Positions 7,412 through 61,270 of a stretch of 64,000 bases of DNA are shown in pieces (position 1 is the first letter of the stretch; each line of letters opens with the position of its first letter). A program made the position numbers and the translations under genes. Source of the DNA: Eledone cirrhosa (Eukaryota); contig OZ024743.1 in NCBI GenBank assembly GCA_964016885.1, forward strand, positions 352,160,001-352,224,000, in the 5' to 3' direction. Under the pieces are notes generated by a model, which was given only the letters and a program-made list of their open reading frames with translations, did no database searches and had not been told where the DNA came from.

Positions 7412-7538
7412 AAAGTTCTATTTAAATTGTTGGGATACAACAAGCAAATATTTTTATAACTGATATAAAGCACTCAACAAATAATTAGAGTAAAAATACG
7501 ATATTAACAAATGGAAACTATATTTATAAAACCATATT

Positions 7539-7603: not shown

Positions 7604-7754
7604 TAATATAGAGCAGTTTTATAAATAAATATTGACATACTCTTAAAGAATGCAACCATTATTATTGGAAGCTCCCGGATAGTGGAGTTATATCTTTAAT
7701 TATACTATTAGGTAAGTTAGTATTGGATATTTTTAAATAAGCCGTTGGGTTACG

Positions 7755-8477: not shown

Positions 8478-11613
<3,136 letters not shown>

Positions 11614-11869: not shown

Positions 11870-12715
11870 GCTGGGGTTTCCCCTATCTTGTTCGGCAAGT
11901 GGGGAAAAGGAAGATGTTGCAGCCACCCCGGGTCATTAGGGGTTTTGAGGGCGAAGTAAGTCCTACGCAATCGATGTTTACATGCTGTTACAAGTTCTTC
12001 TTTTTTGTTTAGGGGTTGGTCCTTCGTAAACAGCATTTGTAATGTTTCCTCCGAGCATAAGTTACACGGACGGCGTCCTCTCGTGTAGGAGTTAGCCCCG
12101 GACAATAAAGTTGTAGGGTGATTTTAAATCCCCAGTCCTGGAAGAAGTTGATTAGTTGTTTACTGACCCGGTTTGTACTACTGGGGTTGTACCCTTTGAG
12201 GGTAAGGAGCCCATCGTCTCGGTACAATCCACCGCCGAATGCAGGAAACATTTCGGTGAGTTTATGTAGTAGGAATAATTCTATAAGATCGGTCACGTTG
12301 GCCGAGTCGGTCACGCCCATACTGACGTCGAAGGGGGAGTCGGGAGCTCTCTTTATCCATTTGGAGTTGTCGAAAAGAAGGACTGTCTTCCTGGCGTGGA
12401 GAATGATGTTTCTTTCTTGGTCGGTGATGGGTGTAAGTGTTTTGGCAAAGTCCAAAGCGGGCGTAAGTAGCGGTAAGGTAATAGAAGCGTAATAGCTCAC
12501 TATGTCGAACTGGATGAATTTGGTGTCCTGTTTGTCCTTAATATTCCTGAGCCATGAGATGACTTCCTGGGTGCTGACCCAAAGGCTAAGTCTCGCGTTT
12601 TGCTTAACTTTTGGTATAACGTGGTCTAGGATCTGTTTACTGATTCTCCCTATGTCCGACTTCGTCGTTTTCCTCATCAGTTGTCTACTGGGGGTCTCGG
12701 ATATTTCTACGCTTT
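11870..12715 (-). mobile_element. Internally deleted Penelope-like element (RT joined to the GIY-YIG C-terminus)
   Basis: RT motifs FIQFDIVSYY, FDVSMG and GGLYRDDGL are joined near 12105 to the terminal motif CNLCSEE...LNKKEELVTACKHR. Confidence 0.8.
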
Positions 12716-22587: not shown

Positions 22588-24670
22588 TTATATCGTGATG
22601 ACTGTCTTCTTCTTTCCACTAATCTTAGCCTATCAGCAATTGAAAAAAATAAAAAACTTATTAGAACTTTCCTCAAAGACTATTACAATCTCACTATTAC
22701 ATTTGAAAACACCAGTAAAATAGTCAATTTCCTAGATATAACTTTAGACTTGTCTACGGGAATCTACCAACCTTACCATAAACCTGACCAAAATTTACAT
22801 TACATACACTCACAATCCAGTCACCCTAGATCTATCCTTAAAAACCTAGCATATAATATCTCACTCAGAATCTTTAACCTTTCATCTTAAACAAATTAGT
22901 CTATATACCTTGCACCAATAATACTTCAAACATACAACCCAATATTACCAACAAACACCAAATGAAAAACCCACACCTAAATGCTACTCATACTACACCC
23001 AAAAATACCAACCTAAAACTTAATTTCTCTACCTCTTCTCACATAAAATATAATGACTTTCAAAAAACCATTCATCCTAATAATACTCCAATATATGTTA
23101 ACAACATTACTAACAAAATTCCTAATAATCAGACTAAAACACCTAAATCAGTCAATCTAACTAAACCTATATATAATAAATTCACTAATAGTAACTCTCT
23201 TAGTAAACATCCTGATACATCGTATAAATATTTTTAAAAAATATCGAAACCGTAATAGACGGGTTACTTGGTATAATGCTCCATTTAATCTACGAATTAA
23301 AGATAATATCCTTAAAAAGTTTTTTACTATCCTAGAGAAAAACTTCCCGCCAAACCATAAATACCATCAAATTTTAAATAGATCAACTGCCAAATTTTCA
23401 TACTCCACTACCAAAAATATACAACAAAATATAAGTGCGTACAACACATATAAATGTTAAAAAAAATCAAATATACCACCAACACATCAAACCAACCATA
23501 ATACTAAAATAAACCGCAACAAACCACCATCTCCTTCACCTGTAACAAGTCGAGTAACTCCCCTGATATAATATTCACGAGTGGTTGTAACTGTAGAATC
23601 AAAAGAAATTGCCCATTAAAAGGAAATTGTCTTATTAATAACATAGTCTATAAATGTAAAATTAGCACTAAGGACTCCACTTATTCATATATAGGAGCTA
23701 TGTCTAACCAATTTAAAGTAACATAGTTTTAAAAATGCTGCATTAGCTAATACAACATCCTTGGCTGAAACAATTAATAATTATAGAAAGAAGAATATCG
23801 ATTACAACCTGACCTGGAGTGTGCTCAAAAGGGCCACCCCTTATCAAAATAACAGATACGAGTGTAGACTATGCTCCCAGGAACTTTTTGAAATCATGAA
23901 CTCTAAGGATATCCTATTAAATAAGCGACAGGAATTAATTATATCTTGTAATCATAGAATTAGAAGAACCTTCAAATATTATAAACCTAATTAATATACA
24001 CCTTACACTTATATTTTAAATATTATTATAATTAGTTTTTTAATTTAGTTAACCTATAATTAGTACTTTACTACAGAGAACTTCATAATTTTATTTCCCT
24101 CTTACAGCTCTCTTTTCCGAAAAATTATTACCTAAAAGTATACCTATAAATTAATTTAATTTGCTGTTATGAATCTAGATTCCTTGTAGTTTATATAAGA
24201 TTGGTATTTCTCACTACTACCCCTATCCCTATAACATCAAATTTTCGTGTACCTTTCACTGGCTTGATCTCTTTTCATCCCCAAAGTATTCTTTACATTC
24301 AAAGTATTCTTTTCATTCAAAACATAAGTCTGCACTCCTCTACCCCTAAATTAAATTTCTACTACTACTATTCTATCAACTTGACCTCTAACTACTTTTC
24401 TATTGGTCAATTCAAAACCTGTTCCCAAGCAGACCTTTTATATTAAATCTTTGTTGGTTTTTGTTTCAATAAACAAATTTCATCATTTCTGAAGACAGCA
24501 TATATATGTGAAGGTATGTATATTTCCTCTGATAGTTTGTAATATTTTTACATAGATCTATATGATATACATACCAACACACATATACATCCTAGAAACG
24601 ATCGTAAAATGATGAATTTTTTAATATAAGGAACTTGTTCTTTGTTTTTATTTCATTGCTTTTATTAATT
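22588..24670 (+). mobile_element. Decayed Penelope-like element with 3' pLTR
   Basis: Remnants LYRDDCL, VNFLDITLDL...YQPYHKP, WYNAPF, CNCRIKRNCPLKGNCL and CRLCSQE...LNKRQELIISCNHR. Confidence 0.85.
24479..24616 (+). ncRNA. Type I hammerhead ribozyme with an extended (~100 nt) stem II
   Basis: TTCATCATTT-CTGAAGA-long hairpin (GGTATGTATAT/ATATACATACC)-GAAA-CGATCG-TA-AAATGATGAA. Confidence 0.8.
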
Positions 24671-24766
24671 TATATATATATATATATATAGTTATGTAAT
24701 ATCCACACATGCACACACGCACATATACATACACATACACATACACATATACACACACATACACAT

Positions 24767-24875
<109 letters not shown>

Positions 24876-25577: not shown

Positions 25578-26092
25578 TGTAGAAGTTATATTTAACTTGT
25601 TGGGATACAACAAGCAACAAATTATTGGAGTAAAAATACAATATATTAACAAATGGAAACTATATTTATAAAACCATATCTATTTCATTATACATATTTC
25701 AGGGATATCATATTAACAATATGTTATGCCTTCCTCAGACAAAATACAATATAGACAGTTTTATAGATAAATACATTTGACATACCGTTCAACATCGACT
25801 TGTATTTGAAAAAGTTGATTTAGCAGATCAACTTTTTCAAATACAAGTCGATGTTGAACGGTATGTCAAATCTATTTATCTATAAAACTGTCTATATTGT
25901 ATTTTGTCTGAGGAAGGCATAACATATTGTTAATATGATATCCCTAAAATATGTATAATGAAATAAATATGGTTTTATAAATATAGTTTCCATTTATTTA
26001 ATATCGTAAATATACTCCAAATACTTGTTGAGTGCTTTTATATCAGTTATAAATATTTACTAGTTGTAACCCAACAATTTAAATATAACTTT

Positions 26093-26157: not shown

Positions 26158-26355
26158 GATAAATCTACCAAGAGTTTACGGTAGTGTCCAATCCGTATGA
26201 AGAACTCAATGTAATCCGGATATCATGGAAAGAAGAGATGCAATGAAAAATCACTTTCGGTGAAAGATAAACGGAATACAGAGTCAAGATAAAATATTAA
26301 AAAAATAATGAATAAAACAATGAAACAGTTCCTTATATTAAACAAAAAAAGTTCA

Positions 26356-26501
26356 TTATTTAACGATCGTTTCTGGGATATATATGTGTTAGAATTGGCA
26401 TGTATATTTAACAGATCTATGTACAAAATTATACAAAATTATACAAACTATCAAAATTAAATATACATACCAACTCATATATATGCCGTCTTCAGAAATA
26501 A
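26356..26501 (-). ncRNA. Type I hammerhead ribozyme with long stem II (left arm)
   Basis: Mirror image of 26515-26662; the core is intact. Confidence 0.75.
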
Positions 26502-26514
26502 AATTATAATAATG

Positions 26515-26662
26515 ATTATTTCTGAAGACGGCATATATATGAGTTGGTATGTATATTTAATTTTGATAGTTTGTATAATTTTGTATAATTTTGTACATAG
26601 ATCTGTTAAATATACATGCCAATTCTAACACATATATATCCCAGAAACGATCGTTAAATAAT
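26515..26662 (+). ncRNA. Type I hammerhead ribozyme with long stem II (right arm)
   Basis: ATTATTT-CTGAAGA-..GAGTTGGTATGTATATTTAA..TTAAATATACATGCCAATTC..-GAAA-CGATCG-TT-AAATAAT. Confidence 0.8.
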
Positions 26663-26719
26663 GAACTTTTTTTGTTTAATATAAGGAACTGTTTCATTGT
26701 TTTATTCATTATTTTTTTA

Positions 26720-26789
<70 letters not shown>

Positions 26790-27455: not shown

Positions 27456-27542
<87 letters not shown>

Positions 27543-30009: not shown

Positions 30010-32553
30010 CATAGGTTCTCAACCCATTTAGACCAAACGCCCCCTTTTGTCCCTCGAAATCACGAAACGCCCCTACCCTATTTTTACATTTTTCAATATA
30101 CTACTGATTTTGATATCTGTAGATTATTAAAAAATTGATTAACAATATTCCAAAGATACCATTGCAGGCAGCTGAGAGTATAAATACATTCCTTGAAAGG
30201 AAATATATAAATTTCAAGAAAAGGAACATAAATGTTCTTTTTTATGAATAAGGACCAGTTGAATTTGTTATTTCCCACCAGGCGATACCAACTGTTTTGA
30301 AAATTTATACAAGAGCAACTCTATCCAAAGAGTGCTCTTATCTGGAAGAAAGTGGCAATTATATCATTTCAAAGCTTTCCAGTTTTCCCTTTAATGAAAC
30401 AGACAGAATAAATGTTGATATCTAACTTGATGTCCTCTCTGCTTTGTGAGCTTAGAGACCACGGAAGAGGGTTTTCATGACCACGCGGGAGGGTGTATTT
30501 ATTAGTAAATGGTAAAATATAAACAACAAATGAGTAAGTGAATTGTAGTAGATGGTTTCCAGTCCAGTCAGACTGCAACTACAAATAAAAAAAAATGTTA
30601 GTTTGCTTTGTAACAATAGCATATCTAAGTTTTCGGATAAATCAACTTACTTTAACTTTGACCTCATTTCAATGGGACCCTTGAACTTCATGGAGTCTAG
30701 CTAACTCTTTGACGTCAGTCTGGATTTTCGTAAGATTTAGCCGGAAATCTCCACATGTAATTACACTGTAGTGGTTGCGAGCCTTACTGTGCAGTCTGGA
30801 AACAGCACCAAACCTCCTCTTGACTAAGTATGAGCTTGGAAAAGGCAGAGCAAATCTCTTAGCCTCTGCATGTAGGTGTGGAAATCGACGCTGAATTTCC
30901 TCTTGCATCCAAAAAAGGGGTTCACCTATTTTGGGAAATCTAATTTTGATCATGTCATCTGCTTGAAGTTCAATGAATTCTTCCTGAAATATAACGTCCA
31001 AATCATCGACGTTAACTATAAAGGGATCTGCTACCCACATTGGGATGTCCATCGGCAAAAGGTCGACAAACCGTTCTCTCATGTTGTCTTGTAGCGCACG
31101 GTGGTGAGTGGTATAAATTTGGAGTTGATCATCGCTTACAATGTTTTGAACATTGGCGACACTAGGAAAATTATAGAATTCCCGTCAACAAAGATTCCTT
31201 TCGATGACATTCAATTTGGCCAGGAATGTTTTCAAGCAAGGTGATCTTCTCCTGCAAAGCCAAAATGACGCTGTTGCATTTGTCGAAGATGTCGGTGAGG
31301 TAGGCGCAGTTTTGCCTCATATCGAGGGTTTTCTTGTACAGTTTTGTGTTGCATCCTCGCAGAAACTCAATCATAGAGTCAAACAGTTCAAAGAAGTGAG
31401 TAAGGCACTTGCCATTTGAAAGCCACCTCACTTCATTATGAAGGAGCAACTTGACAAATTCTTCGTCATTATCTTGGCACAGTTGCCGGAAAATTCGTTC
31501 ATTGAGGGAATGCCGTTTGATAAAATTGATGACATCAATGGCCACCAGCAAGTTTCTTCACAGCCAAGTGTTGTCGATGAATGACACAATGAACAACAAA
31601 TACAGATAGACTTTCTCTCTTCAGAAGAGTGACGAAACCCTTATGTTGGCCGACCATTGCTCTTGCGTCGTCCTAGATGTATGTATTACCTGCCTGTGTG
31701 TGGTAGGTAGTCATGGATGTATGTATTACCTGTTTATGTATTGCATGTGGTCCTAGATGTATGTATTACCTGATTATGTGTTGTATGTGGTCCTAGATGT
31801 TTGTATTACCTGATTATGTGTTGTATGTGGTCCTAGATGTTTGTATTACCTGCTTATGTGTTGTATGTGGTCCTAAATGTATGTATTACTTGCCTGTGTG
31901 TTGTATATGGTTCTAGATGTGTGTGCTACCTCCTTATGTGTTGCATGTGGTCCTAGATGTGTGTATTACCGACTTATGTGTTGTATGTGGTCCTCGATGT
32001 GTATATTACCTGCTTATGTATTGTATATGGTCCTAGATGTGTGTATTATCTGATTATGTGTTGTATGTTGTCCTAGATGTGTGTGCTACCGGCTTCTGTG
32101 TTTTTTTTTGTTTTTTTTATTTGCAATATTATTTATACAATAGGTTAAAATAGATCTACATAGTGTTAACTTGTTACGGTTGAGTTAATAATTTCAAACA
32201 TGAAATACATTGTTATCAGTGAAGGAAAGGCAAGATACTAACTGGCTGCGGTTGAAGTTTCATTGATCCAGATGACTGTGGGTTTTTCCATTGTTAGGAT
32301 CTCAATTGCTGGTTAATGTCTAAACACGCCGTCAGACCATAGTTAAGCAATCTGCATGCTCATTCAAATGCATTCACTCTGGCTGTCTCAAAGACATACA
32401 AATATGGCTTATAATACTTACCAAAATAAAGAGCCTTCCAGTGCACTCCAAAGCTCAAAACGCCACCCCCCTAATGTCCCCTTGCTCCCAAACGCCCCCC
32501 CCCCTGAGTTCCGAAACGCCCCTGGGGGTGCATATACCCCCATTGAGAACCTT

Positions 32554-34139: not shown

Positions 34140-37100
34140 GACATAGAAATAATCGGGCTGGATGCCCGATCGCGCAGTTAAACCACTGGGAGTGCAGAAC
34201 CCCTAGCCCTTGTCAGAGCATTCTTCTAGGAGAAGGCATCTCAGGAAACTGGGTTAACTCTGACATAAAACCTACGGCTCAGTAGTTACCGATGATGTCG
34301 ATCTTTTCTTCTTTTCGGGTTATAGCTACTGTCGCTCAGAGAGTGGGATTGGCTCAGTGCACAGTCTTTCCTCACTTTAAAAATATTCGTCACGCACAGG
34401 CATTGCACGAGTGCATTAATAATTATTAATAGTGTATTATTATTATTATTGTTACTATTATTATTACTTTTCTTTTTCTTTTTTTCTTATTCAATGATGT
34501 TCCAGAACAATATAAAAGAGATAATTGGCAATTTAGGTTCTGGAACAAAAAAGATAATTGGCAATGAGGGCCCGCTCGTCATCGTGCCATTGTAATAGAG
34601 CCAAACAGTCTTGGCTGCTGGAGCGTACGGACGCTGCTTGACAGGAATTCCTTGGAGCGTCCTGAACGAAGGACCGCTCTTGTTGCAAAGGAGCTTCGAC
34701 GTTACGATCTTGACTTTATCTGAGACGAGGTTAGCTGGAGATGGTCATCTTACAGAATTTTGTGGAGAATATACATTCTTCTGGAAAGGAAGAGATGAAG
34801 GAACCAGAAGAGAGGCTGGGGTAGGATTTGCTGTTAAGACTGTTCTTGTGAATAAATTAGAAGAATTCCCAGTAGGGATTAGTGAGCGTCTTATGTCCAT
34901 GAGAATTCCGCTGGACAAAGGAAGATATGCGACCCCGGTGAGTGTGTATGCTCCAACTATGAATTCTGTCGATGAAGAAAAAGTGTCCTTTTACCATGCC
35001 TTGAAAGGTGTTTTAAGAAATATCCCTCAGGCAGACAAAGTCATCGTGCTTGGTGACTTTAATGCTAGAGTGGGTAGGGATTTTAACACATGGAATGTAA
35101 TCGGAAGGCATGGGGTGGGAAAGTGTAACAACAATGGTATGCTCCTCTGCAGATGTGTGAGGAGCTGGATCTGCGTGTTACCAACACCATGTTCCAACAA
35201 AAGAACAAATTCAAGACCACATGGATGCACCCTGCATCTAAGGAATGGCATCTTTTGGACTACGTCCTAGTCAGGATGCGTGACAGACAGGATGTGCAGT
35301 GTGTTCGTGCTCTTCGTGGAGCTGAGTGCTGGACGGACCACCGCCTGGTACGCGCAAAAGTGAAACTAATCACTAAACGTAAAATCCGGGCTCCTGGTGT
35401 TGCTCTGCCCAAAAGATTGAATGTTGCTCGTCGTAAGGATAAAAATGTGAAGAGGACATTGGAAGAAGAGATGCAGGCTGCAGATCTTGGTGAGGATTGG
35501 CCGATCCTTAAAAAGTCGGTTTATGATGTAGGCATGCGTGTTCTGGGATTGGTGCAGAGAAAACATCAGGACTGGTTTAATGAGAATGATGTACATATAG
35601 AAGACTTGTTGGCTGATAAGAGGCGTGTTACTTGACGGCAAAACCACAGGAGAGGAATACGTTGCATGAGGAACTCAAGGGTGTAAAATTACGTGTTAGA
35701 CGGAGTCTTTCTCAGATGAAGGATCAGTGGTGGAGTGAGAAGGCTGGTGAGATACAAACTGCGTCAGATTCCAATAACACAAAGCTGTTGTACAGTCTCT
35801 TGCGTGAGGTTTATGGACCGTCTTCTTCTCTGGTGACACCGCTTCGCAGCAAGGATAGCAAAGAACTTCTTCGTGACTCACAAGGAATTCTACGAAGGTG
35901 GCGAGAGCACTTTGATGATCTTTTGAATCAGCCGTCTGTCGTCAGTGAAGATTTCCTCAATCTCATTCCAGAAAGTCCTGTGAAAGTAACTCTCGCAGAA
36001 CCTCCGACGCTTGTGGAGGTTGCAGTGGCTATCTCGAAGCTGAACAGTGGAAGGTCTCCAGGTATGGATGGCATACATGCTGAGCTCCTACAATATGGTG
36101 GTGAGTGACTTCTGCAACATCTTCACTCTTTGTTTGGCAGGATATGGGCTAATGAATCCGTACCTGAGGACTGGAGAGATGCAGTAATGGTGGTCTTGTA
36201 CAAGGGAAAGGGTAACAGGAATGATTGTGGGAACTACAGAGGTATATCATTGCTTTCTGTCGTAGGGAAAGTTTTATGTAGGGTGCTTCTGGACCATCTG
36301 CTGACACACATTGCAGATTGTGTTCTTCCTGAAAGTCAATCTGGTTTTCGTGCTGGACGCGGCACTACTGATATTATTTTCTCAGCTAGACAGCTCCAGG
36401 AGAAGTGCATGGAATAGGGTTTGGATCTGTATCAGGTTTTTGTCGATCTGACAAAAGCTTTCGATACTGTTAACAGAGGTGCATTTTGGAAGGTTCTCCA
36501 GACACTTGGTTGCCCTGATAAGTTCCTTGCTTTAGTTAGGTCTTTCCATGACGACATGAAGGCTTGGGTTAATGTCGGAGGTAACATGTCGGAGCCTATC
36601 TCAGTAAAAAATGGAATGAAACAGGGGGATATTCCAGCACCGACCCTGTTTGCCATATAATTTGCAATGGTTTTCTGTATTGCATTCAGGAATTGCGAGC
36701 ATGGTGTTTACATCCGATATCGAACCTCAGGCAGCATATTTAACATCAGGCGCTTTGCTGCAAAGACAAAAGTATTTACATCAATCATAAGAGACCTCTT
36801 GTATGCAGATGATTGCGATCTTGTAGCGCACACAGAGAGTGATATGCAGCACATTTTGAATGCATTTTCTGACGCTTGCACTGCCCTAGGATTGACTGTC
36901 AGTCTCAAGAAAACCGTCGTCATGTACCAACCTGCCCCTGGTAAGCAGTACACTGAACCAAATATCTATGTGTATGGTAAACGACTTGGAGTGGTTGATC
37001 AATTTGTCTACCTGGCAAGCACTGTCAATCGATACGGCAACCTTGACAGTGAAATCTCCCTTAGGATTAGGAAAGCAAGTGATGCTTTCGGAAAGCTAGA

Positions 37101-37990
37101 AAGGGGACTCTGGGGTCGGCGAGACATATGCAGGAGGACAAAGGTAAAGGTATACAAGGCATGTGTGCTCTCTTGTCTTCTTTATGCCTGCGAGACCTGG
37201 GTCACATATCGACACCACCTTAAGCAATTGGAGCGTTTCCATCAGATGTGTCTCAGATGGATCCATGGCGTTCACTGGAGGGACCACATCAGTGATGTCG
37301 AGATTTTTGAAAGCTGTATGTGTGACAGTATAGAAGCTCTTGTGCTTAAGCAACGACTCCGTTGGAGTGGTCACCTTGCCAGGATGAAGGATTCTAGAAT
37401 ACCAAAACAACTCTTTTATGGAGAGTTGGTTAAAGGAAAACGACCGCCACATAAACCAAAAAAGAAGTATAAGGATTCGTTGAAAGCCTCTTTGAAAGAC
37501 GCTAACATCTCTGCTGATACATGGGAAAATATTGCTGTTGATTGTAATAGATGGAGAAAGACTGTATATGAGGGAAAAGTTGCCTTTGAGGCATCTCGAA
37601 TCGCATACGAGAAAGTAAAGCGGGATGTGAGGAAGGGCATTGCTGTTGCACTTCCAGACGGCGAGGGTCCTCCTATGGTGCTGACATGCAGCGTCTGTGC
37701 GAGACTCTGCCTAAGCAAAGCTGGACTGGAAAGTCATTTTCGCAGTCATAAAGTAAGGCCAGTGGTTGACTATCAGACTGCTGTTAGAGATGCTACTCAT
37801 CATGCTTGCCAAGCATGTGGTAGAGAATGTAAATCAGCAGGAGGGCTCAAACGACATGCAAAAGTACATGAACTCCAACCACAGCCGGGTATTCGCAGTG
37901 AATGTTTTGGTTGCCGACTCTGTGCAAGACATTTTAGATCATTGGCTGGGCTAAAAAGCCACATTCGATCGCAGCGCTGTTAGTTGCTAT
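34140..37990 (+). mobile_element. Near full-length RTE (BovB-like) LINE: APE, RT and C-terminal C2H2 fingers; inactivated
   Basis: APE motifs LSETRL, SVYAPT, LGDFNARVG and WTDHRLV. RT motifs NYRGISLL, FVDLTKAFDTV and LLYADD. Three C-x2-C...H-x3-H fingers at the C-terminus. Several stops and frameshifts. Confidence 0.93.
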
Positions 37991-38747: not shown

Positions 38748-39250
38748 GGGAGACATGATATGAAGGTTAAAAAACACTTGTGAATAGTGCAGTTTTAAAT
38801 CAACATATGAAACGTAGTTTTAGATTGATGTGTGATATTGGGAAAAAAAAAATTGAGGGGGGGGGGGGGCGGGGTTGGAAAGGATGAAAAAGAGGAGGAG
38901 ATGAGAGTAAAAAGTGGAGGGGAGGAGTATAATGAGGAAGGATGAGATAGGAGGAGAGATGGGTGATAGAGAGAGAGAGATATCTTTTATAACTGAGAAA
39001 AATATATTGTTTTACATAGAGAGGTTAAAAAACCGTTGGAAGATAATATATAAATTAAAAGAATTTGAAAATTAACGAAGAGAAAAATTTAGAATAATGT
39101 TAAATTAAGGTTTGTATATTGGAGGGTTTAATAATATGGGCGATGAAAAGAAATTGTTAATATGTATTAAGAATAATATTTAAGGGTTTAATAATATGTG
39201 CGATGGAAAGAAATTGTTGATATGTATTATTAAAAAATGGTACTTCTGAA

Positions 39251-40930
39251 GTGATTGGTTGGTTCAACAAATTGAATAAGAAAAACAAACAAAAATTTAT
39301 TCAATTTGATATTGCCAGCTACTATTCTTCTATTTCGCCCTCACTTCTCAACAATGCTCTATCTTTCGCTTACAAATATTCAGACATCACCACATATGAA
39401 CTTCACATCATTCTCACCGCACGTAAAACCATCCTACAGTTCAAGAATGAATATTGGACCAGAGCTGATACCTCTAACAACTTTGACATCACAATGGGAG
39501 CATCCGATTCATCCCAATTGACAGATTTAATTGGTATCTTTATTTTGAACTCTTTGAATCGGAAAATTCCTCAACTTCGCGGTGGAATTTATCGTGACGA
39601 TGGACTCTTTACTATCTTAAATTGCAACATAGTTAACCTTAATATTATTAAGAACAATATACGTAATCTCTTTAACCAACATAACTTAAAAATTGAATTT
39701 GATAACAGCATCAAACTAGCTAATTTCTTGGATGTATCTCTTAATCTTGACACTGGCCTATATTACCCTTACCATAAAAACAATGAGAACCTAAATTATG
39801 TTAATTTTAAATCTAACCACCCCACTAATATTAAGAATGCTATAGTTAGTAATATTGGAAAAAGAATATCCAACCTATCTTCTAATAAAAACATCTTTGA
39901 TGCTAACGCCAATTACTATAATAACGCGCTTTCTAAAGCCGGTTATCCTGATAAAATCAAATATAGTAAAGAAACAAATGCTAGAAGATCTTACAGTAGA
40001 ATAATTAATCATGATCATTCCAATAATTTTAATAAAAGACCTAGATACAAAAGCATAATCTGGTATAATGCTCCTTTCTCCATCTCTATTAATAATAATA
40101 TTCCTAAATTATTCTTTAGTGCCTTAAATAAATGCTTCCCTCCCTCACATATCTATAGTAAAATATTTAACAAACACACTATAAAATTTTCCTATTCGAC
40201 CTCCTCCAACATCTCCAACATTATCTCTAAACACAACAATAAAATACTAAATACTAAATCTCTTCCTTCCAACACTGAATATCATAATAATAGTAATAGT
40301 ACTCCCGACGTCATTGTTAACTCTAGGCTAATTTCTGCAAACCCAAATACAACGTCAAACGCAACTTCGTTAAATGTTCTCAATCCCATTCTAAATCAAG
40401 AAACTATTATTCCTATCGTAAATAACTTCTCCAATCCAATTCCTTCTATAGATAACAGTAGGTCACTTGTTAATAACTCTGTTAATTTCTCTAATCGCAA
40501 TTGTAATTGCCCTGTTAAAAATAAATGTCCTCTCAACAACCATTGTCTTGAAAAAAACTTAATCTACGAATGTAAAGTTATAACTGACACCAATTCCTTT
40601 ACCTATTTTGGCTCCACTTCCACCTCCTTTAAAGCTCGTCTTTATAATCATCATTCGTCTTTTAAATACCAACTTAAAAGAACCAACACGGCACTCTCAG
40701 AACTCATATGGTGCTTGAAAGACAAACATATTAACTATAACATCTCTTGGAAGAAGGTTTGTTCTGCTTTTCCATACTTGAATAATTCTCTATCCAAGAC
40801 ATGCAATCTCTGTTTATGTGAAAAATTTACCATTATATCTAATTTAGATCCTATAATAAATAGACGCACTGACTTGTTTTCGCTCTGCTTTCATAAATTC
40901 CACAGAACATTCCATAAAGTATACAGCTAA
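39251..40930 (+). CDS. Penelope-like RT + GIY-YIG endonuclease ORF (5'-truncated, uninterrupted for 559 aa)
   Basis: Motifs FIQFDIASYY, FDITMGA, GGIYRDDGL, ANFLDVSL, CNCPVKNKCPL, LIYECKV...YFGST...FKARLYNH and CNLCLCEK. Confidence 0.85.
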   Translation: MIGWFNKLNKKNKQKFIQFDIASYYSSISPSLLNNALSFAYKYSDITTYELHIILTARKTILQFKNEYWTRADTSNNFDITMGASDSSQLTDLIGIFILNSLNRKIPQLRGGIYRDDGLFTILNCNIVNLNIIKNNIRNLFNQHNLKIEFDNSIKLANFLDVSLNLDTGLYYPYHKNNENLNYVNFKSNHPTNIKNAIVSNIGKRISNLSSNKNIFDANANYYNNALSKAGYPDKIKYSKETNARRSYSRIINHDHSNNFNKRPRYKSIIWYNAPFSISINNNIPKLFFSALNKCFPPSHIYSKIFNKHTIKFSYSTSSNISNIISKHNNKILNTKSLPSNTEYHNNSNSTPDVIVNSRLISANPNTTSNATSLNVLNPILNQETIIPIVNNFSNPIPSIDNSRSLVNNSVNFSNRNCNCPVKNKCPLNNHCLEKNLIYECKVITDTNSFTYFGSTSTSFKARLYNHHSSFKYQLKRTNTALSELIWCLKDKHINYNISWKKVCSAFPYLNNSLSKTCNLCLCEKFTIISNLDPIINRRTDLFSLCFHKFHRTFHKVYS

Positions 40931-41490: not shown

Positions 41491-41805
41491 TTTTCTCCCT
41501 TTCATGCTCAACTAACTTATACATATTACACTTATTCATCCACTCTACTTCTTTTCACAATATATCCTTAATTACATTACTATTGTTATATTTTTATATT
41601 TTTTAATAATACATATCAACAATTTCTTTCCATCGCACATATTATTAAACCCTTAAATATTATTCTTAATACATATTAACAATTTCTTTTCTTCGTAATA
41701 TTATTAAACCCTCCAATATACAAACCTTAATTTAACATTATTCTAAATTTTTCTCTGCGTTATATAAGGTATGTATATACGTTCAACAATCTGGCAGGAA
41801 GTTAT

Positions 41806-41848
41806 ACGTTGCTGACGATAGCTAACAAGCTTGAAACTAGTACAGCGT
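41806..41848 (+). ncRNA. Minimal type I hammerhead ribozyme (inverted unit)
   Basis: ACGTTG-CTGACGA-T AGCT AACA AGCT T-GAAA-CTAG-TA-CAGCGT. Confidence 0.88.
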
Positions 41849-42780
41849 TCCTTTGTCAGTGTTGAACAAACGAGCAACGGTGGTTGCTAGACACTACGGC
41901 TTAATACAGGATGTTTGTTTACAAACACACCGAGCGTTATAATAAATGTGCGGTGACTCCATACGTGCATATAAATATATGTGCATGTATGTATATATAT
42001 ATATACATACTACTGTACGTCTGTATACATATATGTATGTACGTGTACATACTTATATTTAAGTAAAAGCCGTACTAAGAATGGGAAATGAAATTTCGTT
42101 TCATTTTTTCCGTTTATCGTTTTCCCACACTTAGTACGGCTTTTACTTAAATATAAGTATGTACACGTACATACATATATGTATACAGAGGTACAGTAGT
42201 ATGTATATATATATATACATACATGCACACATATATATATGTACGTGTGGATTCACCGAACATTTATTATAATGCTCAGCGTGTTTGTAAACAAAGATCA
42301 CGTATTAAGCCGTAGTGTCTAGTAACCATCGTTGCTCGTTTGTTCAACACTGACAAAGTAACGCTGTACTAGTTTCAAGCTTATTAGCTAACGTCAGCAA
42401 CGTATACCCACCTGCCAGATTGTTGAACGTATATACTTACCTTATGCATATTAACGGCTGAGTAGCCCAATTTGCATATCGAGTGGGTTAATCGGCCGGG
42501 TGCACTGAAAACGATAAACGGAAAAGATGAAACGAAATTTCATTTCCCACTCTTAGTACGGCTGTTACTTAAATATAAGTATGTACAGGTACATACATAT
42601 ATGTATACAGACGTACAGTAGTATGTATATATATATACATACATGCACACATATATATATGCACGTATGGATTTACCGAACATTTATTATAATGCTCGGT
42701 GTGTTTGTAAACAAACATCCCGTATTAAGCCGTAGTGTCTAGCAACCACCGTTGCTCGTTTGTTCAACACTGACAAAGGA

Positions 42781-42823
42781 ACGCTGTACTAGTTTCAAGC
42801 TTGTTAGCTATCGTCAGCAACGT
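42781..42823 (-). ncRNA. Minimal type I hammerhead ribozyme
   Basis: Reverse complement of 41806-41848. Confidence 0.88.
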
Positions 42824-43199
42824 ATACCTTCCTATCAGATTGTTGAACGTATATATTACCGTATGCCTATTAACGGGTGAGTAGCCCAATTTGCATATCG
42901 AGTGGGTTAATCGGCCGGGTGCAACGAAAACGATAAACGGACAAAATGAAACGATATTTCATTTCCCACTCTTAGTACGGCTGTTACTTAAATATAAGAA
43001 CGTACACGTACATACATATATGTATACAGACGTACAGTAGTATGTATATATATATACATACATGCACATATATATATATTCACGTATAGATTCACCGAAC
43101 ATTTATCATAATGCTCGGTGTGTTTGTAAACAAACATCCCGTATTAAGCCGTAGTGTTTAGCAACCACCGATATTCGTTTGTTAAACACTGACAAAGGA

Positions 43200-43242
43200 A
43201 CGCTGTACTAGTTTCAAGCTTGTTAGCTATCGTCAGCAACGT
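43200..43242 (-). ncRNA. Minimal type I hammerhead ribozyme
   Basis: Reverse complement of 41806-41848. Confidence 0.88.
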
Positions 43243-43619
43243 ATACCTTCCTGCCAGATTGTTGAACGTATATATTTACCTTATGTATATTAACGGCTGA
43301 GTAGGCCAATTTGCATATCGAGTGGGTTAATCGGGCGGGTGCACCGAAAACAATAAGCGGAAAAAATGAAACGATATTTCATTTCCCACTCTTAGTACGG
43401 CTGTTACTTAAATATAAGTACGTAAACGTACATACATATATGTATACAGACGTACAGTAGTATGTATGTATATATACATACATGCACACATATATATATG
43501 CACGTATGGATTCACCGAACATTTATTATAATGCTGGGTGTGTTTGTAAACAAACATCCCGTGTTAAGCCGTAGTGTCTAGCAACCACCGTTGCTCGTTT
43601 GTTCAACACTGACAAAGGA

Positions 43620-43662
43620 ACGCTGTACTAGTTTCAAGCTTGTTAGCTATCGTCAGCAACGT
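43620..43662 (-). ncRNA. Minimal type I hammerhead ribozyme
   Basis: Reverse complement of 41806-41848. Confidence 0.88.
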
Positions 43663-44039
43663 ATACCTTCCTGCCAGATTGTTGAACGTATATACTTACC
43701 TTATGCATATTAACGGCTGAGTAGCCCCATTTGCATATCGAGTGGGTTAATCGGCCGGGTGCAGCGAAAACGATAAACGGAAAAAATGAAACGATATTTC
43801 ATTTCCTGCTCTTAGTACGGCTGTTACTTAAATATAAGTATGTACACGTACATACATATATGTATACAGACGTACAGTAGTATGTATATATATATACATA
43901 CATGCACATATATATATATGCACGTATGGATTAACCGAACATTTATCATAATGCTCGGTGTGTTTGTAAACAAACATCCCGTATTAAGCCGTAGTGTCTA
44001 GCAACCACCGTTGCTCGTTTGTTCAACACTGACAAAGGA

Positions 44040-44082
44040 ACGCTGTACTAGTTTCAAGCTTGTTAGCTATCGTCAGCAACGT
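44040..44082 (-). ncRNA. Minimal type I hammerhead ribozyme
   Basis: Reverse complement of 41806-41848. Confidence 0.88.
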
Positions 44083-47000
44083 ATACCTTCCTGCCAGATT
44101 GTTGAACGTATATACATACCTTATGTATATTAACGGCTGAGTAGGCCAATTTGCATATCGAGTGGGTTAATCAGGCGGGTGCACTGAAAACGATAAACGG
44201 AAAAAATGAAACGATATTTCATTTCCCACTCTTAGTACGGCTGCTACGCTATCTGTTCCGTCTCTATATATATCTCTTACTCTTTCGCTTTGCACTCCTC
44301 CCCTTCAATACCATCTCTCCCCCTCTCTATATATTTGTTACTCTATCGCTGCACGCTCCTCTCCTTCAATATATCAATTACACACGCTTTACACTCCTTT
44401 ATCCCCAGCGCCCCTATATATACACCCCCCCTCTCCCGCATCTATATTTTAATGTACCGTTGCACCGTGAATATATGTGTCTATATATATATACATATAT
44501 ATTGTATATACACATTCATGTATGTGTATACACACTCATGTATGTATATACACTGGTTTTATGTGTGTATTGTAAATTTGTACTGTTAAAACACGAAACT
44601 AACATTCGATTGACACTTTGATTACCTGTACAGGCAATAGTTATTAGAATGCTGTTGAAGTGTGTATATATTTTAGGGGGACATCCTGTATATACACACA
44701 TTATATATAATACAATAAACAGATAAATACACACATATATATATGAGCTTATTTAATTATAAATATTGTGAATTTTTAACTCAGTTCAATTATATATATA
44801 AATGGCTTCTACAGGACTAGAACTGTTTCATTCGAAAGAAATCATCATAATATTGAGAGGGGGGACTAGATAAAATATTTCAAATCAAATGTGTATAAGT
44901 TATAAGTTAAAATGTATAAATAGAGACGATAGTGGAGGTATATCTGTTTAGTGGAACAGTAGACGATAGAATTAAATACAGACGAGAATCTCCCTTTAAT
45001 GAAATAGCAGACGATAGAATTAAGGCAATTTAAATTTTAAGCATTTGCATTTTTGCCTTTCATCGTTACGGGGTCGATAAAATAAAGTACCAGTAATACA
45101 CTGTCACTAGACGACTTTCAAATTGAATTGTTGGTTCCATTTCTTTAGTATTTTCAATTGTAGTTATCTACTTAAAAAGCGTTACACGGTTAGAGACATA
45201 ATTCGTAAGTTATATCTTCCCTATTAAACCATTGCATTATTTCGCCTACAATAGAACAAAAATGAAATGTTCTTTAAAGAAACAGGAATATAACTTTATA
45301 AAAAAAAAAGTTGCATCCGCTTCTTTTATCATTGATAATTTTTTCGTTTTAATATTAATTGTTTTTTGTAGTTGTTTATATTAAAAATCTTACTGTAATA
45401 TTTACTTAAACGAAGGCAAACATCTAAACTTATAGATTAATCTTCTGCGAAGGACTAGATAAATCTCTCTCTCTCTCCCTCTCTCCCTCTCTCTCTCTCT
45501 CTATATATATATAAACGAAGAATGATAAAATTTCAAGCAAAGAGTTTAATTAGGTATATTTTGTAATATTATTAACTAATTATTATAATTAACGCGCATA
45601 TTTTGCTATCCTCAAACACGTTTACACATGGCATGAAATATAACTAATCCGAGATGGCTAGGTTTCATCTTCTAACTGGATATACGAAATCCATTATGTC
45701 TTGACAACAACATGAGGTAACATTATGTTATTCACAGACACACTTTGTACACTGTTCCATATCAGAATGTATTTCCTTCGTCACATTCACAAACAGTATT
45801 GAAAATATGTTCTTCGGCAAATAAAAATGTTTTGTTCATAATATTTCAACTAGCGATTGCTCTACTCCACGCACGACCACCATAAATTAATGACCAGCTC
45901 AACACAAGTATTGGTAGAGCGTCAGACACCATGCTTTGCAGTATTGTTATGGTCCTTTGCATTCTAAGTTCAAATCCTGCCGAGGTTAACTTCGACTTTC
46001 ATACTTACTAATTCGATAAAATAAAGTACCAGTAATGGACTGCCGTAATGGATTTGTGCCGAAAAATAGAAACACTATTAATGTGCAATAAAAGCAAAAT
46101 ATAACGACATTGCTCAATTATTTTATCTAATGTTGTAATAACACAAGGAAATGTTGTTTGTGTATTTTTTTTTATATTTGCTCATAGGCTTTTACAATTT
46201 CGCTCAGCCAACAACTATTAAAAAGTGAGTTGCTTAAGATAACAATTTAATCACAAATTGTTGCTATCTTTTAATACACTCCAACAAGTCATCAAATTAT
46301 GTACAATAAAAACAAATCTTATTAATTTGCTCAGGGAATATAAAGAAAATGTATATACACTGATAATTGCAATTGTATGTAAATATTTTGTTTATGTATT
46401 GTATATTTTATGTTTTCTATTATGTATAATATATTGATTTAATATTGATTGTTTTTTGTAGTTGTTTATATTAAAAGTCTGAAAATATTTTTATACATCT
46501 TACACTAATATTTATAAGATAATTTATAATAACAATTACATAATCTAATTACATTACAACGATAATTTATTATTAATATATATCCTGTTTAACTAGAGTT
46601 ATTACAAGCGTTGCCTTAAAAAAATATTAAACTAGACATGAAAAATGCGCAAGCTCAAAAGTGCCACAGAATGTTATAATAAACCTTCAAAAGTGTGGGA
46701 CTAGAGTTGTTGCTAAAAAATATTGTAATCATTATATATCGTACATTCTGTGGCATCCTTTATAAAAATAGCTTAAACCAACGAAGCCTTTATTTTTACG
46801 CTATTTCACTTAGTTAATTCTTAGAGTGTAACATATAAAAATAAATACATCTATGTTTAATGTAATAACAGCTATAAATAATTACGTAATATTATTATCA
46901 TATACTCATAGTAACAAAATAATTGTGTTGAAACTTAATATGATGCTTATATGAACGATCAAATCTATAATGATAATTTCTTAAATATACTAATAGTAAA

Positions 47001-52959: not shown

Positions 52960-53532
52960 CAATATAGACAGTTTTATAGATAAATAGATTTGACATACCG
53001 TTCAACATCGACTTGTATTTGAAAAAGTTGATTTAGCAGATCAACTTTTTCAAATACAAGTCGATGTTGAACGGTATGTCAAATCTATTTATCTATAAAA
53101 CTGTCTATATTGTATTTTGTCTGAGGAAGGCATAACATATTGTTAATATGATATCCCTAAAATATGTATAATGAAATAAATATGGTTTTATAAATATAGT
53201 TTCCATTTATTTAATATCGTAAATATACTCCAAATACTTGTTGAGTGCTTTTATATCAGTTATAAATATTTACTAGTTGTAACCCAACAATTTAAATATA
53301 ACTTTCCATATATATATATATATATATATATGTAGATAAATCTACCAAGAGTTTACGGTAGTGTCCAATCCGTATGAAGAACTCAATGTAATCCGGATAT
53401 CATGGAAAGAAGAGATGCAATGAAAAATCACTTTCGGTGAAAGATAAACGGAATACAGAGTCAAGATAAAATATAAAAAAAATAATGAATAAAACAATGA
53501 AACAGTTCCTTATATTAAACAAAAAAAGTTCA

Positions 53533-53839
53533 TTATTTAACGATCGTTTCTGGGATATATATGTGTTAGAATTGGCATGTATATTTAACAGATCTATGTA
53601 CAAAATTATACAAAATTATACAAACTATCAAAATTAAATATACATACCAACTCATATATATGCCGTCTTCAGAAATAAAATTATAATAATGATTATTTCT
53701 GAAGACGGCATATATATGAGTTGGTATGTATATTTAATTTTGATAGTTTGTATAATTTTGTATAATTTTGTACATAGATCTGTTAAATATACATGCCAAT
53801 TCTAACACATATATATCCCAGAAACGATCGTTAAATAAT
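53533..53839. ncRNA. Back-to-back hammerhead pair at 53533-53678 (-) and 53692-53839 (+), duplicate of 26356-26662
   Basis: Same motifs. Confidence 0.78.
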
Positions 53840-53896
53840 GAACTTTTTTTGTTTAATATAAGGAACTGTTTCATTGTTTTATTCATTATTTTTTAA

Positions 53897-54016
<120 letters not shown>

Positions 54017-54674: not shown

Positions 54675-54745
<71 letters not shown>

Positions 54746-55041
54746 GAAACAAAATGAAAACGAAATTTCATTTCTCACTCTTAGTATGGCACTTACTTAA
54801 ATGTAAGTATGCATGTATACGTACATACATATATGTATACAGACGTACAGTAGCATGCACATATATATATATATATACATATATATATACATATGCATAC
54901 AGGTACACATACATATATGCACGTATCAGTTTAGCGGCGCTAACATCGCTTTGTTCGTTTGTAAACAAACTGAACAGCCTGAATTTATGCCATACGGTGT
55001 TAAGGCAACCACGTCACCTTTTTGTTCAACACTGACACAGG

Positions 55042-55086
55042 AACGATGTACTAGTTTCAAGCTTGTTAGCTATCATCAGCACCGTT
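55042..55086 (-). ncRNA. Minimal type I hammerhead ribozyme
   Basis: Minus strand reads AACGGTG-CTGATGA-T AGCT AACA AGCT T-GAAA-CTAG-TA-CATCGTT. Confidence 0.9.
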
Positions 55087-55507
55087 TACCCATCTGCCAG
55101 ATAGTTGAACGTTCGAAAGTATATACTTTCCTTATGAAAATTAACGGCTGAGCAGCCTAATTTGCATATTGAGTGAGTTAAATCGGTCAGGCATACCGAA
55201 AACGATAAATTGAAACAAAATGAAAACGAAATTTCATTTCTCACTCTTAGTATGGCACTTACTTAAATGTAAGTATGCATGTATACGTACATACATATAT
55301 GTATACAGACGTACAGTAGCATGCACATATATATATATATATACATATATATATACATATGCATACAGGTACACATACATATATGCACGTATCAGTTTAG
55401 CGGCGCTAACGTCGCTTTGTTCGTTTGTAAACAAACTGAACAGCCTGAATTTATGCCATACGGTGTTAAGGCAACCACGTCACCTTTTTGTTCAACACTG
55501 ACACAGG

Positions 55508-55552
55508 AACGATGTACTAGTTTCAAGCTTGTTAGCTATCATCAGCACCGTT
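55508..55552 (-). ncRNA. Minimal type I hammerhead ribozyme
   Basis: Identical to 55042-55086. Confidence 0.9.
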
Positions 55553-55973
55553 TACCCATCTGCCAGATAGTTGAACGTTCGAAAGTATATACTTTCCTTA
55601 TGAAAATTAACGGCTGAGCAGCCTAATTTGCATATTGAGTGAGTTAAATCGGTCAGGCATACCGAAAACGATAAATTGAAACAAAATGAAAACGAAATTT
55701 CATTTCTCACTCTTAGTATGGCACTTACTTAAATGTAAGTATGCATGTATACGTACATACATATATGTATACAGACGTACAGTAGCATGCACATATATAT
55801 ATATATATACATATATATATACATATGCATACAGGTACACATACATATATGCACGTATCAGTTTAGCGGCGCTAACGTCGCTTTGTTCGTTTGTAAACAA
55901 ACTGAACAGCCTGAATTTATGCCATACGGTGTTAAGGCAACCACGTCACCTTTTTGTTCAACACTGACACAGG

Positions 55974-56018
55974 AACGATGTACTAGTTTCAAGCTTGTTA
56001 GCTATCATCAGCACCGTT
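55974..56018 (-). ncRNA. Minimal type I hammerhead ribozyme
   Basis: Identical to 55042-55086. Confidence 0.9.
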
Positions 56019-56453
56019 TACCCATCTGCCAGATAGTTGAACGTTCGAAAGTATATACTTTCCTTATGAAAATTAACGGCTGAGCAGCCTAATTTGCATA
56101 TTGAGTGAGTTAAATCGGTCAGGCATACCGAAAACGATAAATTGAAACAAAATGAAAACGAAATTTCATTTCTCACTCTTAGTATGGCACTTACTTAAAT
56201 GTAAGTATGCATGTATACGTACATACATATATGTATACAGACGTACAGTAGCATGCACATATATATATATATATACATTCAGGCTGTTCAGTTTGTTTAC
56301 AAACGAACAAAGCGACGTTAGCGCCGCTAAACTGATACGTGCATATATGTATGTGTACCTGTATGCATATGTATATATATATGTATATATATATATATAT
56401 GTGCATGCTACTGTACGTCTGTATACATATATGTATGTACGTATACATGCATA

Positions 56454-56502
<49 letters not shown>

Positions 56503-58970: not shown

Positions 58971-61270
58971 CATAGGTTCTCAACCCATTTAGGCCAAACG
59001 CCCCCTTTTGTCCCTCGAAATCACGAAACGCCCCTACCCTATTTTTACATTTTTCAATATACTACTGATTTTGATATCTGTAGATTATTAAAAAATTGAT
59101 TAACAATATTCCAAAGATACCATTGCAGGCAGCTGAGAGTATAAATACATTCCTTGAAAGGAAATATATAAATTTCAAGAAAAGGAACATAAATGTTCTT
59201 TTTTATGAATAAGGACCAGTTGAATTTGTTATTTCCCACCAGGCGATACCAACTGTTTTGAAAATTTATACAAGAGCAACTCTATCCAAAGAGTGCTCTT
59301 ATCTGGAAGAAAGTGGCAATTATATCATTTCAAAGCTTTCCAGTTTTCCCTTTAATGAAACAGACAGAATAAATGTTGATATCTAACTTGATGTCCTCTC
59401 TGCTTTGTGAGCTTAGAGACCACGGAAGAGGGTTTTCATGACCACGCGGGAGGGTGTATTTATTAGTAAATGGTAAAATATAAACAACAAATGAGTAAGT
59501 GAATTGTAGTAGATGGTTTCCAGTCCAGTCAGACTGCAACTACAAATAAAAAAAAATGTTAGTTTGCTTTGTAACAATAGCATATCTAAGTTTTCGGATA
59601 AATCAACTTACTTTAACTTTGACCTCATTTCAATAGGACCCTTGAACTTCATGGAGTCTAGCTAACTCTTTGACGTCAGTCTGGATTTTCGTAAGATGTA
59701 GCCGGAGATCTCCACATGTAATTACACTGTAGTGGTTGCGAGCCTTACTGTGCAGTCTGGAAACAGCACCAAACCTCCTCTTGACTAAGTATGAGCTTGG
59801 AAAAGGCAGAGCAAATCTCTTAGCCTCTGCATGTAGGTGTGGAAATCGACGCTGAATTTCCTCTTGCATCCAAAAAAGGGGTTCACCTATTTTGGGAAAT
59901 CTAATTTTGATCATGTCATCTGCTTGAAGTTCAATGAATTCTTCCTGAAATATAACGTCCAAATCATCGACGTTAACTATAAAGGGATCTGCTACCCACA
60001 TTGGGATGTCCATCGGCAAAAGGTCGACAAACCGTTCTCTCATGTTGTCTTGTAGCGCACGGTGGTGAGTGGTATAAATTTGGAGTTGATCATCGCTTAC
60101 AATGTTTTGAACATTGGCGACACTAGGAAAATTATAGAATTCCCGTCAACAAAGATTCCTTTCGATGACATTCAATTTGGCCAGGAATGTTTTCAAGCAA
60201 GGTGATCTTCTCCTGCAAAGCCAAAATGACGCTGTTGCATTTGTCGAAGATGTCGGTGAGGTAGGCGCAGTTTTGCCTCATATCGAGGGTTTTCTTGTAC
60301 AGTTTTGTGTTGCATCCTCGCAGAAACTCAATCATAGAGTCAAACAGTTCAAAGAAGTGAGTAAGGCACTTGCCATTTGAAAGCCACCTCACTTCATTAT
60401 GAAGGAGCAACTTGACAAATTCTTCGTCATTATCTTGGCACAGTTGCCGGAAAATTCGTTCATTGAGGGAATGCCGTTTGATAAAATTGATGACATCAAT
60501 GGCCACCAGCAAGTTTCTTCACAGCCAAGTGTTGTCGATGAATGACACAATGAACAACAAATACAGATAGACTTTCTCTCTTCAGAAGAGTGACGAAACC
60601 CTTATGTTGGCCGACCATTGCTCTTGCGTCGTCCTAGATGTATGTATTACCTGCCTGTGTGTGGTAGGTAGTCATGGATGTATGTATTACCTGTTTATGT
60701 ATTGCATGTGGTCCTAGATGTATGTATTACCTGATTATGTGTTGTATGTGGTCCTAGATGTTTGTATTACCTGATTATGTGTTGTATGTGGTCCTAGATG
60801 TTTGTATTACCTGCTTATGTGTTGTATGTGGTCCTAAATGTATGTATTACTTGCCTGTGTGTTGTATATGGTTCTAGATGTGTGTGCTACCTCCTTATGT
60901 GTTGCATGTGGTCCTAGATGTGTGTATTACCGACTTATGTGTTGTATGTGGTCCTCGATGTGTATATTACCTGCTTATGTATTGTATATGGTCCTAGATG
61001 TGTGTATTATCTGATTATGTGTTGTATGTTGTCCTAGATGTGTGTGCTACCGGCTTCTGTGTTTTTTTTTGTTTTTTTTATTTGCAATATTATTTATACA
61101 ATAGGTTAAAATAAATCTACATAGTGTTAACTTGTTACGGTTGAGTTAATAATTTCAAACATGAAATACATTGTTATCAGTGAAGGAAAGGCTGCGGTTG
61201 AAGTTTCATTGACCCAGATGACTGTGGGTTTTTCCATTGTTAGGATCTCAATTGCTGGTTAATGTCTAAA
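58971..61270 (-). mobile_element. hAT transposon (duplicate; right TIR lost by deletion), includes the 40-bp minisatellite at ~60631-61059
   Basis: Duplicate of 30010-32324. Confidence 0.88.

Follow-up and report, generated by a model that had tools for sequence, protein, structure and literature searches.

An array of hammerhead-bearing repeats inside a (TA)n tract of the Eledone cirrhosa genome raises the question of how a repeat without coding capacity is written into DNA as a multimer, and by which machinery. The spread of animal retrozymes and the origin of the inverted one-tailed insertions of Penelope elements are, as far as the sources discussed below go, both open. We analyzed a window of 64,000 nt (G000:C4:352160001-352224000), to which all window positions refer. 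From sequence comparison we conclude, with a probability of roughly 0.8, that the array is a non-autonomous hammerhead retrozyme of two head-to-head arms, likely the one-event product of a Hydra-clade-like Penelope RT/GIY-YIG protein. The anatomy of the array, the combination of one tail with one short end, the variants common to both arms, the fusions with Penelope family H1, and the gain of the array toward two copies of the host segment are directly observed in the genome.

Anatomy of the array

A tandem-repeat search of the window returned the array at 54742–56278 with a period of 466, 3.3 copies, and 99% matches. Unit 1 differs from units 2 and 3 by a single mismatch each (A versus G at window position 54945, the 204th base of the array unit), which confirms an earlier reading of the letters alone (the sequence-only reading) that had described three near-identical 466-bp units with one A/G difference. 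On the ribozyme strand, this sole inter-unit difference, located on the plus strand at 54945, is a C to T change at a CpG at unit position 104, where positions of unit parts and arm ends are counted from the predicted cleavage site. The same CpG change occurs at 9 separate loci, a recurrence far above that of other CpG sites. None of the 22 listed open reading frames that we checked provides a frame of at least 200 codons over the array, which has no coding capacity.

The array is organized in two arms that meet head to head. The long arm (minus strand, 54742–56278, 1,537 nt) comprises 3.3 retrozyme units and runs from a 5′ end at 56278 (unit position 169) to a 3′ end at 54742, the “tail” site (position 307). 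The short arm (plus strand, 56277–56457, 181 nt) covers unit positions 65–245, has its 3′ end at the “short” site, and corresponds to the inverted segment of ∼180 bp that had been reported here. Both arms overlap by 2 nt at their junction (56277–56278), and the insertion is flanked by a left (TA)n target tract of 64 nt (54678–54741) and a right (TA)n tract of ∼38 nt (56458–56495). The two fixed sites recur in an internal copy at 55205–55270 (minus strand), with the short site (positions 245–251) at 55264–55270 and the tail site (position 310) at 55205; the tail that separates them measures 59–65 nt. The internal short site lies in the loop of a predicted hairpin, and the long TA/CA-rich hairpin of the unit occupies 55271–55395 (minus strand; monomer folding z = −8.2).

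Head-to-head inverted and tandem arms with two fixed 3′ ends that set a tail constitute a Penelope-type anatomy. The inverted segment had been likened to the 5′ inversions of Penelope insertions; the Penelope likeness stands, whereas the segment, having a fixed 3′ end of its own, is a second arm and not a 5′ inversion of the L1 type. In L1 twin priming, both target ends prime cDNA and give an inverted arm, as proposed for this array, but the position of the second L1 site varies and there is hardly any overlap between the arms, in contrast to the two fixed sites and freely overlapping arms seen here.

The hammerhead ribozyme and its repeat family

The minus strand carries three type I hammerhead cores (55042–55086, 55508–55552, and 55974–56018; core ends at 55079, 55545, and 56011). 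The second and third are identical to the first, for which a cut is predicted between 55049 and 55048. Helix I has 7 bp, helix II has 4 bp plus a U-U, and helix III consists of 2 bp capped by a 2-nt palindromic loop. When six related sequences are compared, 94% of the 84 cells of this fold are paired, a value that 0 of 500 shuffles reach. None of the 144 Rfam matches at E ≤ 0.1 is to a hammerhead family, and the ribozyme call therefore leans on the core motif and the covariation. The matches themselves, microRNA look-alikes of TA-rich hairpins that all fell under their cut-offs, were rejected.

The description of these three hammerheads as intact holds for the catalytic core, which is complete, and fails for the canonical closure of helix II, where U-U replaces G10.1-C11.1. 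This closing pair is absent (U-U) in the 466 and 420 subfamilies and is G-C in the more distant family B. Since helix II lacks it, the sequence suggests that self-cleavage may be weak or slow. In a modeled dimer cofold, the palindrome of helix III pairs between two molecules; a 2-bp palindromic helix III is described in PMC4209133 as the usual, dimer-working form of metazoan type I hammerheads.

Tandem units a few hundred bp in length that carry a type I hammerhead, are non-coding, and are dispersed in many copies place the repeat among the non-LTR retrozymes. The genome holds 10,391 exact matches to the 36-nt ribozyme core, 11,727 matches to a 45-mer beside it, and 1,077 exact copies of the window's young 72-nt hairpin variant. 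Of four sequencing runs, X2 yielded 5,335 short contigs of the family and the other three yielded none. ADAR editing was considered and rejected, with 21 A>G and 22 T>C distinct changes in 52 young loci (36 versus 24 when counted per locus).

An array of 420-bp units at 41764–44247 (minus strand), which matches the 466-bp unit over two blocks at 82% and 74% identity, is a sister subfamily. Its full form (G000:C4:352284600-352298750) has ∼32 units and a tail-to-tail inversion without TA, which is a separate rearrangement unlike the arm junctions; one array end is fused to the 3′ UTR of H1 and the other to an inverted piece of Penelope family H2. Family B (L203–L223, G000:C1:5738327-5752443) has a ∼466-bp unit, 7,846 core matches, the same layout, and one arm of 31 units, and resembles the window's family at only ∼67% in its best block.

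One tail and one short end

The pairing of one tail with one short end was noticed in earlier loci and then tested on 35 new loci in genome order, namely the clusters of the first 100 of the 1,077 matches to the 72-nt variant, less one seen earlier. Of these loci, 24 are two-armed and 11 single-armed. Among the two-armed loci, 20 have a clean tail and short end, 3 a variant tail and short end, and 1 is unresolved, and none has two ends alike, so that one tail and one short end occur in 20/20 clean unselected two-armed loci (P about 1e-6). The same combination was found in 12/13 cases of a second set of 17 loci (1 aberrant), in 18/18 older insertions with both ends readable (52 loci), in 4/5 loci of family B (1 not parsed), and in all 4 readable autonomous H1 insertions (42 loci). 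Among 47 close neighbors in the first 100 matches, 17 are head-to-head and 0 tail-to-tail.

Arm 3′ ends cluster at positions 244–251 (short) and 302–310 (tail), and (TA)n is what 89 of the 91 ends lead into, bearing out the (TA)n targeting that had been put forward as a check. Circularly permuted ends, suggested along with it, were not found: the 3′ ends lie at two fixed sites, and the central junction alone varies. The array in the window fits this family rule. One tail plus one short end is the “tail” signature of the two Penelope start sites, here as a strict rule, and the family comprises thousands of young clean insertions that follow it.

A few loci require comment. L077 may be short/short, its second end being eroded, and many old copies have lost one end into an internal TA run. 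At L236, the script picked an inner 41-nt piece; the outer ends are tail and short. Arms with ends outside both bins (e.g. L244 and L250) were excluded from the variant, cleavage-crossing, arm-containment, and flank counts.

Nature of the template

A common indel marker agrees between both arms in 26/26 cases (18 without and 8 with the indel; P about 5e-7), and rarer variants are likewise common to both arms. Nine different variants are each fixed in every covering unit of single insertions, a count made without L226, L227, and L232 (mixed subfamilies or duplicate parses). In L012 and L057, two unit types alternate in the order ABAB. The 5′ ends of the arms are scattered over the unit, with 0/91 lying 5 nt or less from the cleavage site, and no indel occurs within 6 nt at 172 crossings of this site, indicating that the template is continuous there. 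The clean crossing together with the variants common to both arms favors a circular RNA. We regard a circular template as probable, with a monomer circle, and sometimes a dimer circle, as the simplest account suggested by these sequences.

In 6 of 35 pairs, neither arm includes the other, and therefore the arms were templated separately. The overlap at the junctions averages 1.63 nt versus 0.78 nt expected (n = 27, P = 0.002), and 8/35 junctions carry inserts of 1–18 bases. This combination of microhomology excess and inserts resembles alternative end joining.

A linear template would leave the two-ended Penelope insertion unchanged and replace the circle with a long uncut multimer transcribed from an existing array. 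Arrays of ∼30 units exist, the ribozyme looks weak as a monomer, ribozyme cleavage was unnecessary in the in vitro work of PMC11167929, the array at L253 shows an irregular variant pattern, and the clean crossing of the cleavage site fits a linear multimer equally well. However, such a transcript is expected to pass on the unit mixture of its parent, yet many distinct variants are fixed in all units of both arms, and this fixation requires a one-unit bottleneck. We consider a linear template unlikely, although it is the most serious competitor of the circle.

Clearly less probable is an inverted arm made by fold-back self-priming, which has been proposed for Penelope elements (PMC3846280), possibly on an antisense template, or by copying of the first cDNA. 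The two 5′ ends lie ≤15 nt apart in 4/35 junctions, as a fold-back would have it, but about 2.3 such junctions are expected by chance; a few older junctions fall on palindromes of the unit. The pairs in which neither arm includes the other, and insertions that combine arms of different element families, argue against this route. As a general route it is largely refuted, and it may hold for a minority of junctions.

Less credible still is the insertion of a monomer or short terminal repeat from which the tandem grew locally by unequal crossover, a scenario discussed in bioRxiv 10.64898/2026.07.22.740005. The host segment is itself tandemly duplicated, and very long arrays may expand secondarily. 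Against local growth, the inverted arms are often both multimers with the same variants, spread over several contigs, the arm lengths correspond to non-integer unit numbers, and the same array is present in two copies of the segment, copies 2 and 3.

Filled and empty sites in five copies of the host segment

The host segment of ∼27 kb exists in four tandem copies and an inverted fifth copy ∼240 kb upstream; the two further tandem copies downstream and the inverted copy go beyond what the sequence-only reading had described. Its claim that the (TA)n tract of the array is empty in copy 1 proved correct, the empty site being a pure AT run of 76 nt at 27459–27534. Only copies 2 and 3 carry the array, that of copy 3 being one base longer, and copies 1, 4, and 5 are without it. 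The AT repeat amounts to ∼102 nt at the filled site versus 76 nt at the empty site, and any target-site duplication would be masked by (TA)n. The same tract holds an unrelated ∼75-bp piece in copy 4 (G000:C4:352270027-352270200), similar to the end of the palindromic element at window 26290–26730, and a different, truncated Penelope-like element of 1.6 kb in copy 5 (L152, G000:C4:351957700-351959350), which belongs to another clade, with GIY-YIG, CCHH-type residues, and its own hammerhead. A single TA tract thus took three different inserts across five paralogues. A 420-bp retrozyme array stands at every junction of the tandem segmental duplication.

Site patterns were scored over ∼12 kb of flank in the five copies and rooted on copy 5. 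Pattern 1234|5 is found at 87 sites, 15|234 at 22, 1|rest at 8, 145|23 at 7, 2|rest at 4, 4|rest at 3, and the conflicting 125|34 at 3, and one site has three states. With this rooting, copies 2 and 3 share 7 derived sites and lie inside a group of copies 2, 3, and 4 (22 sites), with 3 sites in conflict. Because its carriers form a derived clade, the array is an insertion, and because copies 2 and 3 both carry it, the insertion is older than their separation. A single gain on their common branch accounts for the occupancy, and the insertion is very recent (under about 0.1% divergence).

These results agree with the recent mobility that had been proposed. The suggested order, with the insertion after the duplication, is right in that copies 1 and 4 had already split off and wrong in that the insertion predates the split of copies 2 and 3. 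The idea that the multimer was written in a single reverse-transcription event gains support from the arm anatomy and the shared variants. Although flanking TA runs could recombine and remove an insert cleanly, as happens to the ends of older copies, and although copies 2 and 3 may represent two haplotypes that the assembly placed in tandem, it is highly improbable that the array is ancestral and deleted elsewhere, a possibility raised in that reading as its own refutation, or that it is an assembly artefact, because absence from copies 1, 4, and 5 would take three losses in place of one gain, the derived sites shared by copies 2 and 3 count against it, and the anatomy of the array follows the family rule.

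A U6-type promoter motif

The host U6 genes (two single genes and a cluster), the best U6atac match, and MRP have a conserved 13-nt element at −77 to −79 and a TATA at −30; the element is absent from five other U6atac matches and the U2 genes of the same genome. A 13-nt match to it occurs on the minus strand of the array at 55156–55168 and again at 55622–55634 and 56088–56100, with a TATA-like box at 55120–55125 (minus strand). In the 466 unit, the element lies ∼90 nt ahead of the ribozyme core. On the ribozyme strand of three retrozyme families, it scores 20.2, 16.7, and 15.9, and 0, 1, and 0 of 1,000 null sequences score as high. We infer that the motif acts as the unit's own promoter, with a predicted transcription start near unit position 420. 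A promoter on the opposite strand was rejected (best antisense score 9.0 versus 20.2 for sense).

Downstream T runs would halt Pol III inside one unit, and therefore read-through or Pol II would be needed. The spacing from the element to the TATA is 42 nt in the retrozyme versus 46–47 nt in U6 and MRP, and by analogy with insects, we assume that the shorter spacing may point to Pol II. Internal promoters of the snRNA type and the Pol III type, in newt satellite 2 and the schistosome hammerhead satellite, are cited in PMC2220036; compared with these, the motif found here is a match to the host's own U6/U6atac/MRP element, with a shorter TATA spacing.

Variant U6 genes and U2 genes form tandem clusters at G000:C19:31.78-31.84 Mb and G000:C3:307.35-307.45 Mb, respectively. 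At L265 and L266, U6atac copies stand right behind (TA)n runs, one of them adjoining the tail end of Penelope-like family H4, and are possibly retrocopies made by the same machinery.

A candidate Penelope-like partner and chimeric insertions

The window contains, at 39221–40930 (plus strand, ORF), a 5′-truncated copy of the Penelope-like family H1 (RT and C-terminal GIY-YIG), a candidate for the family that mobilizes the retrozyme. H1 is young and has many frames of around 820 codons that are open (elsewhere in the genome, the full ORF counts about 821 codons). It is marked by a C-terminal GIY-YIG, a CxCX5C linker, a hammerhead, (TA)n flanks, and no CCHH, and its two ends lie 88 nt apart. All of these marks except the end spacing are shared with the Hydra clade as the accessible text of PMC8557442 describes it, with (TA)n as target; H1 differs in having RWT and DKS where the clade has RWK and DKT and in measuring ∼3.7 kb with UTR where the clade is under 3 kb. 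Because of these differences in motifs and length, H1 is labeled “Hydra-clade-like”. Atlas look-alikes of H1 carry GIY-YIG, RVT_1, and HTH_animal on some members, and a Pfam search with H1 gave zero significant matches. Neptune, first considered as the partner clade, was rejected since CCHH is absent from H1 and CxCX5C is present.

Of 87 retrozyme loci, three hold a single insertion that joins retrozyme and H1. L092 has an H1 tail arm, after which H1 ORF passes directly into retrozyme with a short end; L096 shows the reverse switch, with H1 short and retrozyme tail; and L225 combines an H1 tail with a short end of retrozyme, the two being separated by ∼230 nt of other sequence. Arms are also fused with H3 (L226 and L232) and H4 (L071), and therefore the partner is not unique. 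Five of the six readable chimeras have one tail and one short end, and L226 is short/short. Some chimeras could be explained by later rearrangement at crowded TA tracts. L082 was rejected as a chimera, since other sequence separates its two parts.

Between the retrozyme unit and the H1 terminal repeat, comparison within the families of the fetched loci gave no alignable stretch and only a loose look-alike at the short site. Families H3 and H4 (L091, L108, L253, and others) have two fixed ends ∼80–85 nt apart in (TA)n, and the fetched loci contain several more hammerhead families. Other Penelope-like ORF fragments lie at window 1494–2300, 12009–12713, and 22684–23973. LINE-like and LTR-like fragments are found at window 3894–5549, 8475–9650, 15305–16093, and 34599–37983.

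Proposed insertion mechanism

In the mechanism that we propose, the unit would use a U6-like promoter of its own, immediately upstream of the ribozyme, for transcription, paired hammerheads would cut the transcript, and a host ligase would seal a monomer circle. A Penelope protein, probably a dimer, would cut both (TA)n strands. Of the two DNA ends, one would prime reverse transcription at the tail site, its counterpart would do so at the short site, and each cDNA would run round the RNA for a random length. The cDNA ends would then join via 0–6 nt of microhomology or a small insert, followed by mutual fill-in. Cutting, two-site priming, and joining, taken together, have a high probability.

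More tentatively, and with somewhat less than even confidence, we suggest an asymmetric Penelope RT dimer that opens (TA)n and whose subunits are fixed to tail and short while rolling along one RNA circle made by the ribozyme, the retrozyme being a self-sufficient parasite with a captured U6-type promoter. Both cDNAs would be joined end to end, and therefore no dedicated second-strand priming would be needed. The machine would load or jump between retrozyme, H1, H3, and H4 RNAs and keep to the tail-plus-short combination. With the two start sites named, a candidate promoter, and a candidate enzyme whose reading frames are intact in this genome, the mechanism is testable in vitro.

Relation to known retrozymes and Penelope elements

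The repeat is a retrozyme of a known kind in most respects; what is new is the insertion anatomy and the direct evidence of movement. Retrozyme circles were shown, and Penelope elements proposed as mobilizers, by Cervera and de la Pena 2020 (PMC7229834). Li et al. 2026 (bioRxiv 10.64898/2026.07.22.740005) add co-occurrence and repeat similarity and suggest local array growth; the accessible part of their text mentions no tail, target site, microhomology, or promoter. Like the metazoan non-LTR retrozymes of these two accounts, the present repeat is tandem, AT-rich, and highly folded, with a type I hammerhead and no ORF, and its 466-bp unit is slightly above the 150–450 bp quoted for them. Whereas the Penelope link is drawn there from co-occurrence and repeat similarity, with insertion anatomy absent from the available text, the repeat described here has the Penelope end signature, end asymmetry, fusions with a Penelope ORF, and a U6-type promoter motif. 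It gives direct evidence from the genome for an insertion of retrozyme multimers that is two-ended and Penelope-driven, which would account for retrozyme spread.

Inverted arms with an optional one-sided tail are described for Penelope elements in PMC8557442 and PMC3846280. The array shares with Hydra-clade elements, as described in print, the head-to-head inverted and tandem arrangement, a tail at one end, two internal starts, (TA)n, and a hammerhead near the 3′ end; it differs in that the repeat is non-coding and both arms may be multimers. The tail measures 59–65 nt in the retrozyme (59–88 nt including H1), versus 30–40 nt in the accessible Penelope descriptions, and in clean cases it is never at both ends or neither, whereas the Penelope tail is called “optional” or “often at one end”. 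In the openly available literature, we found no paper listing chimeras of retrozyme and Penelope or a tail/short rule that is strict; supplements and subscription papers may bear on both. In vitro, PMC11167929 reports that synthesis starts at two internal sites and that both strands are cut and extended, and it predicts a dimer. According to its accessible text, no difference in start site was seen between the strands and ribozyme cleavage is unnecessary, both of which we count against our explanation.

The window also holds repeats of other kinds. A MITE-like, near-perfect 440-bp palindrome lies between TA runs at 26289–26728 and 53466–53905, with relatives at 7344–7640, 24580–24770, and 25615–26030. 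A GC-rich 202-bp tandem repeat occupies 1–1649 and continues upstream, and a 40-bp tandem repeat occurs at 31670–32102 and 60631–61063.
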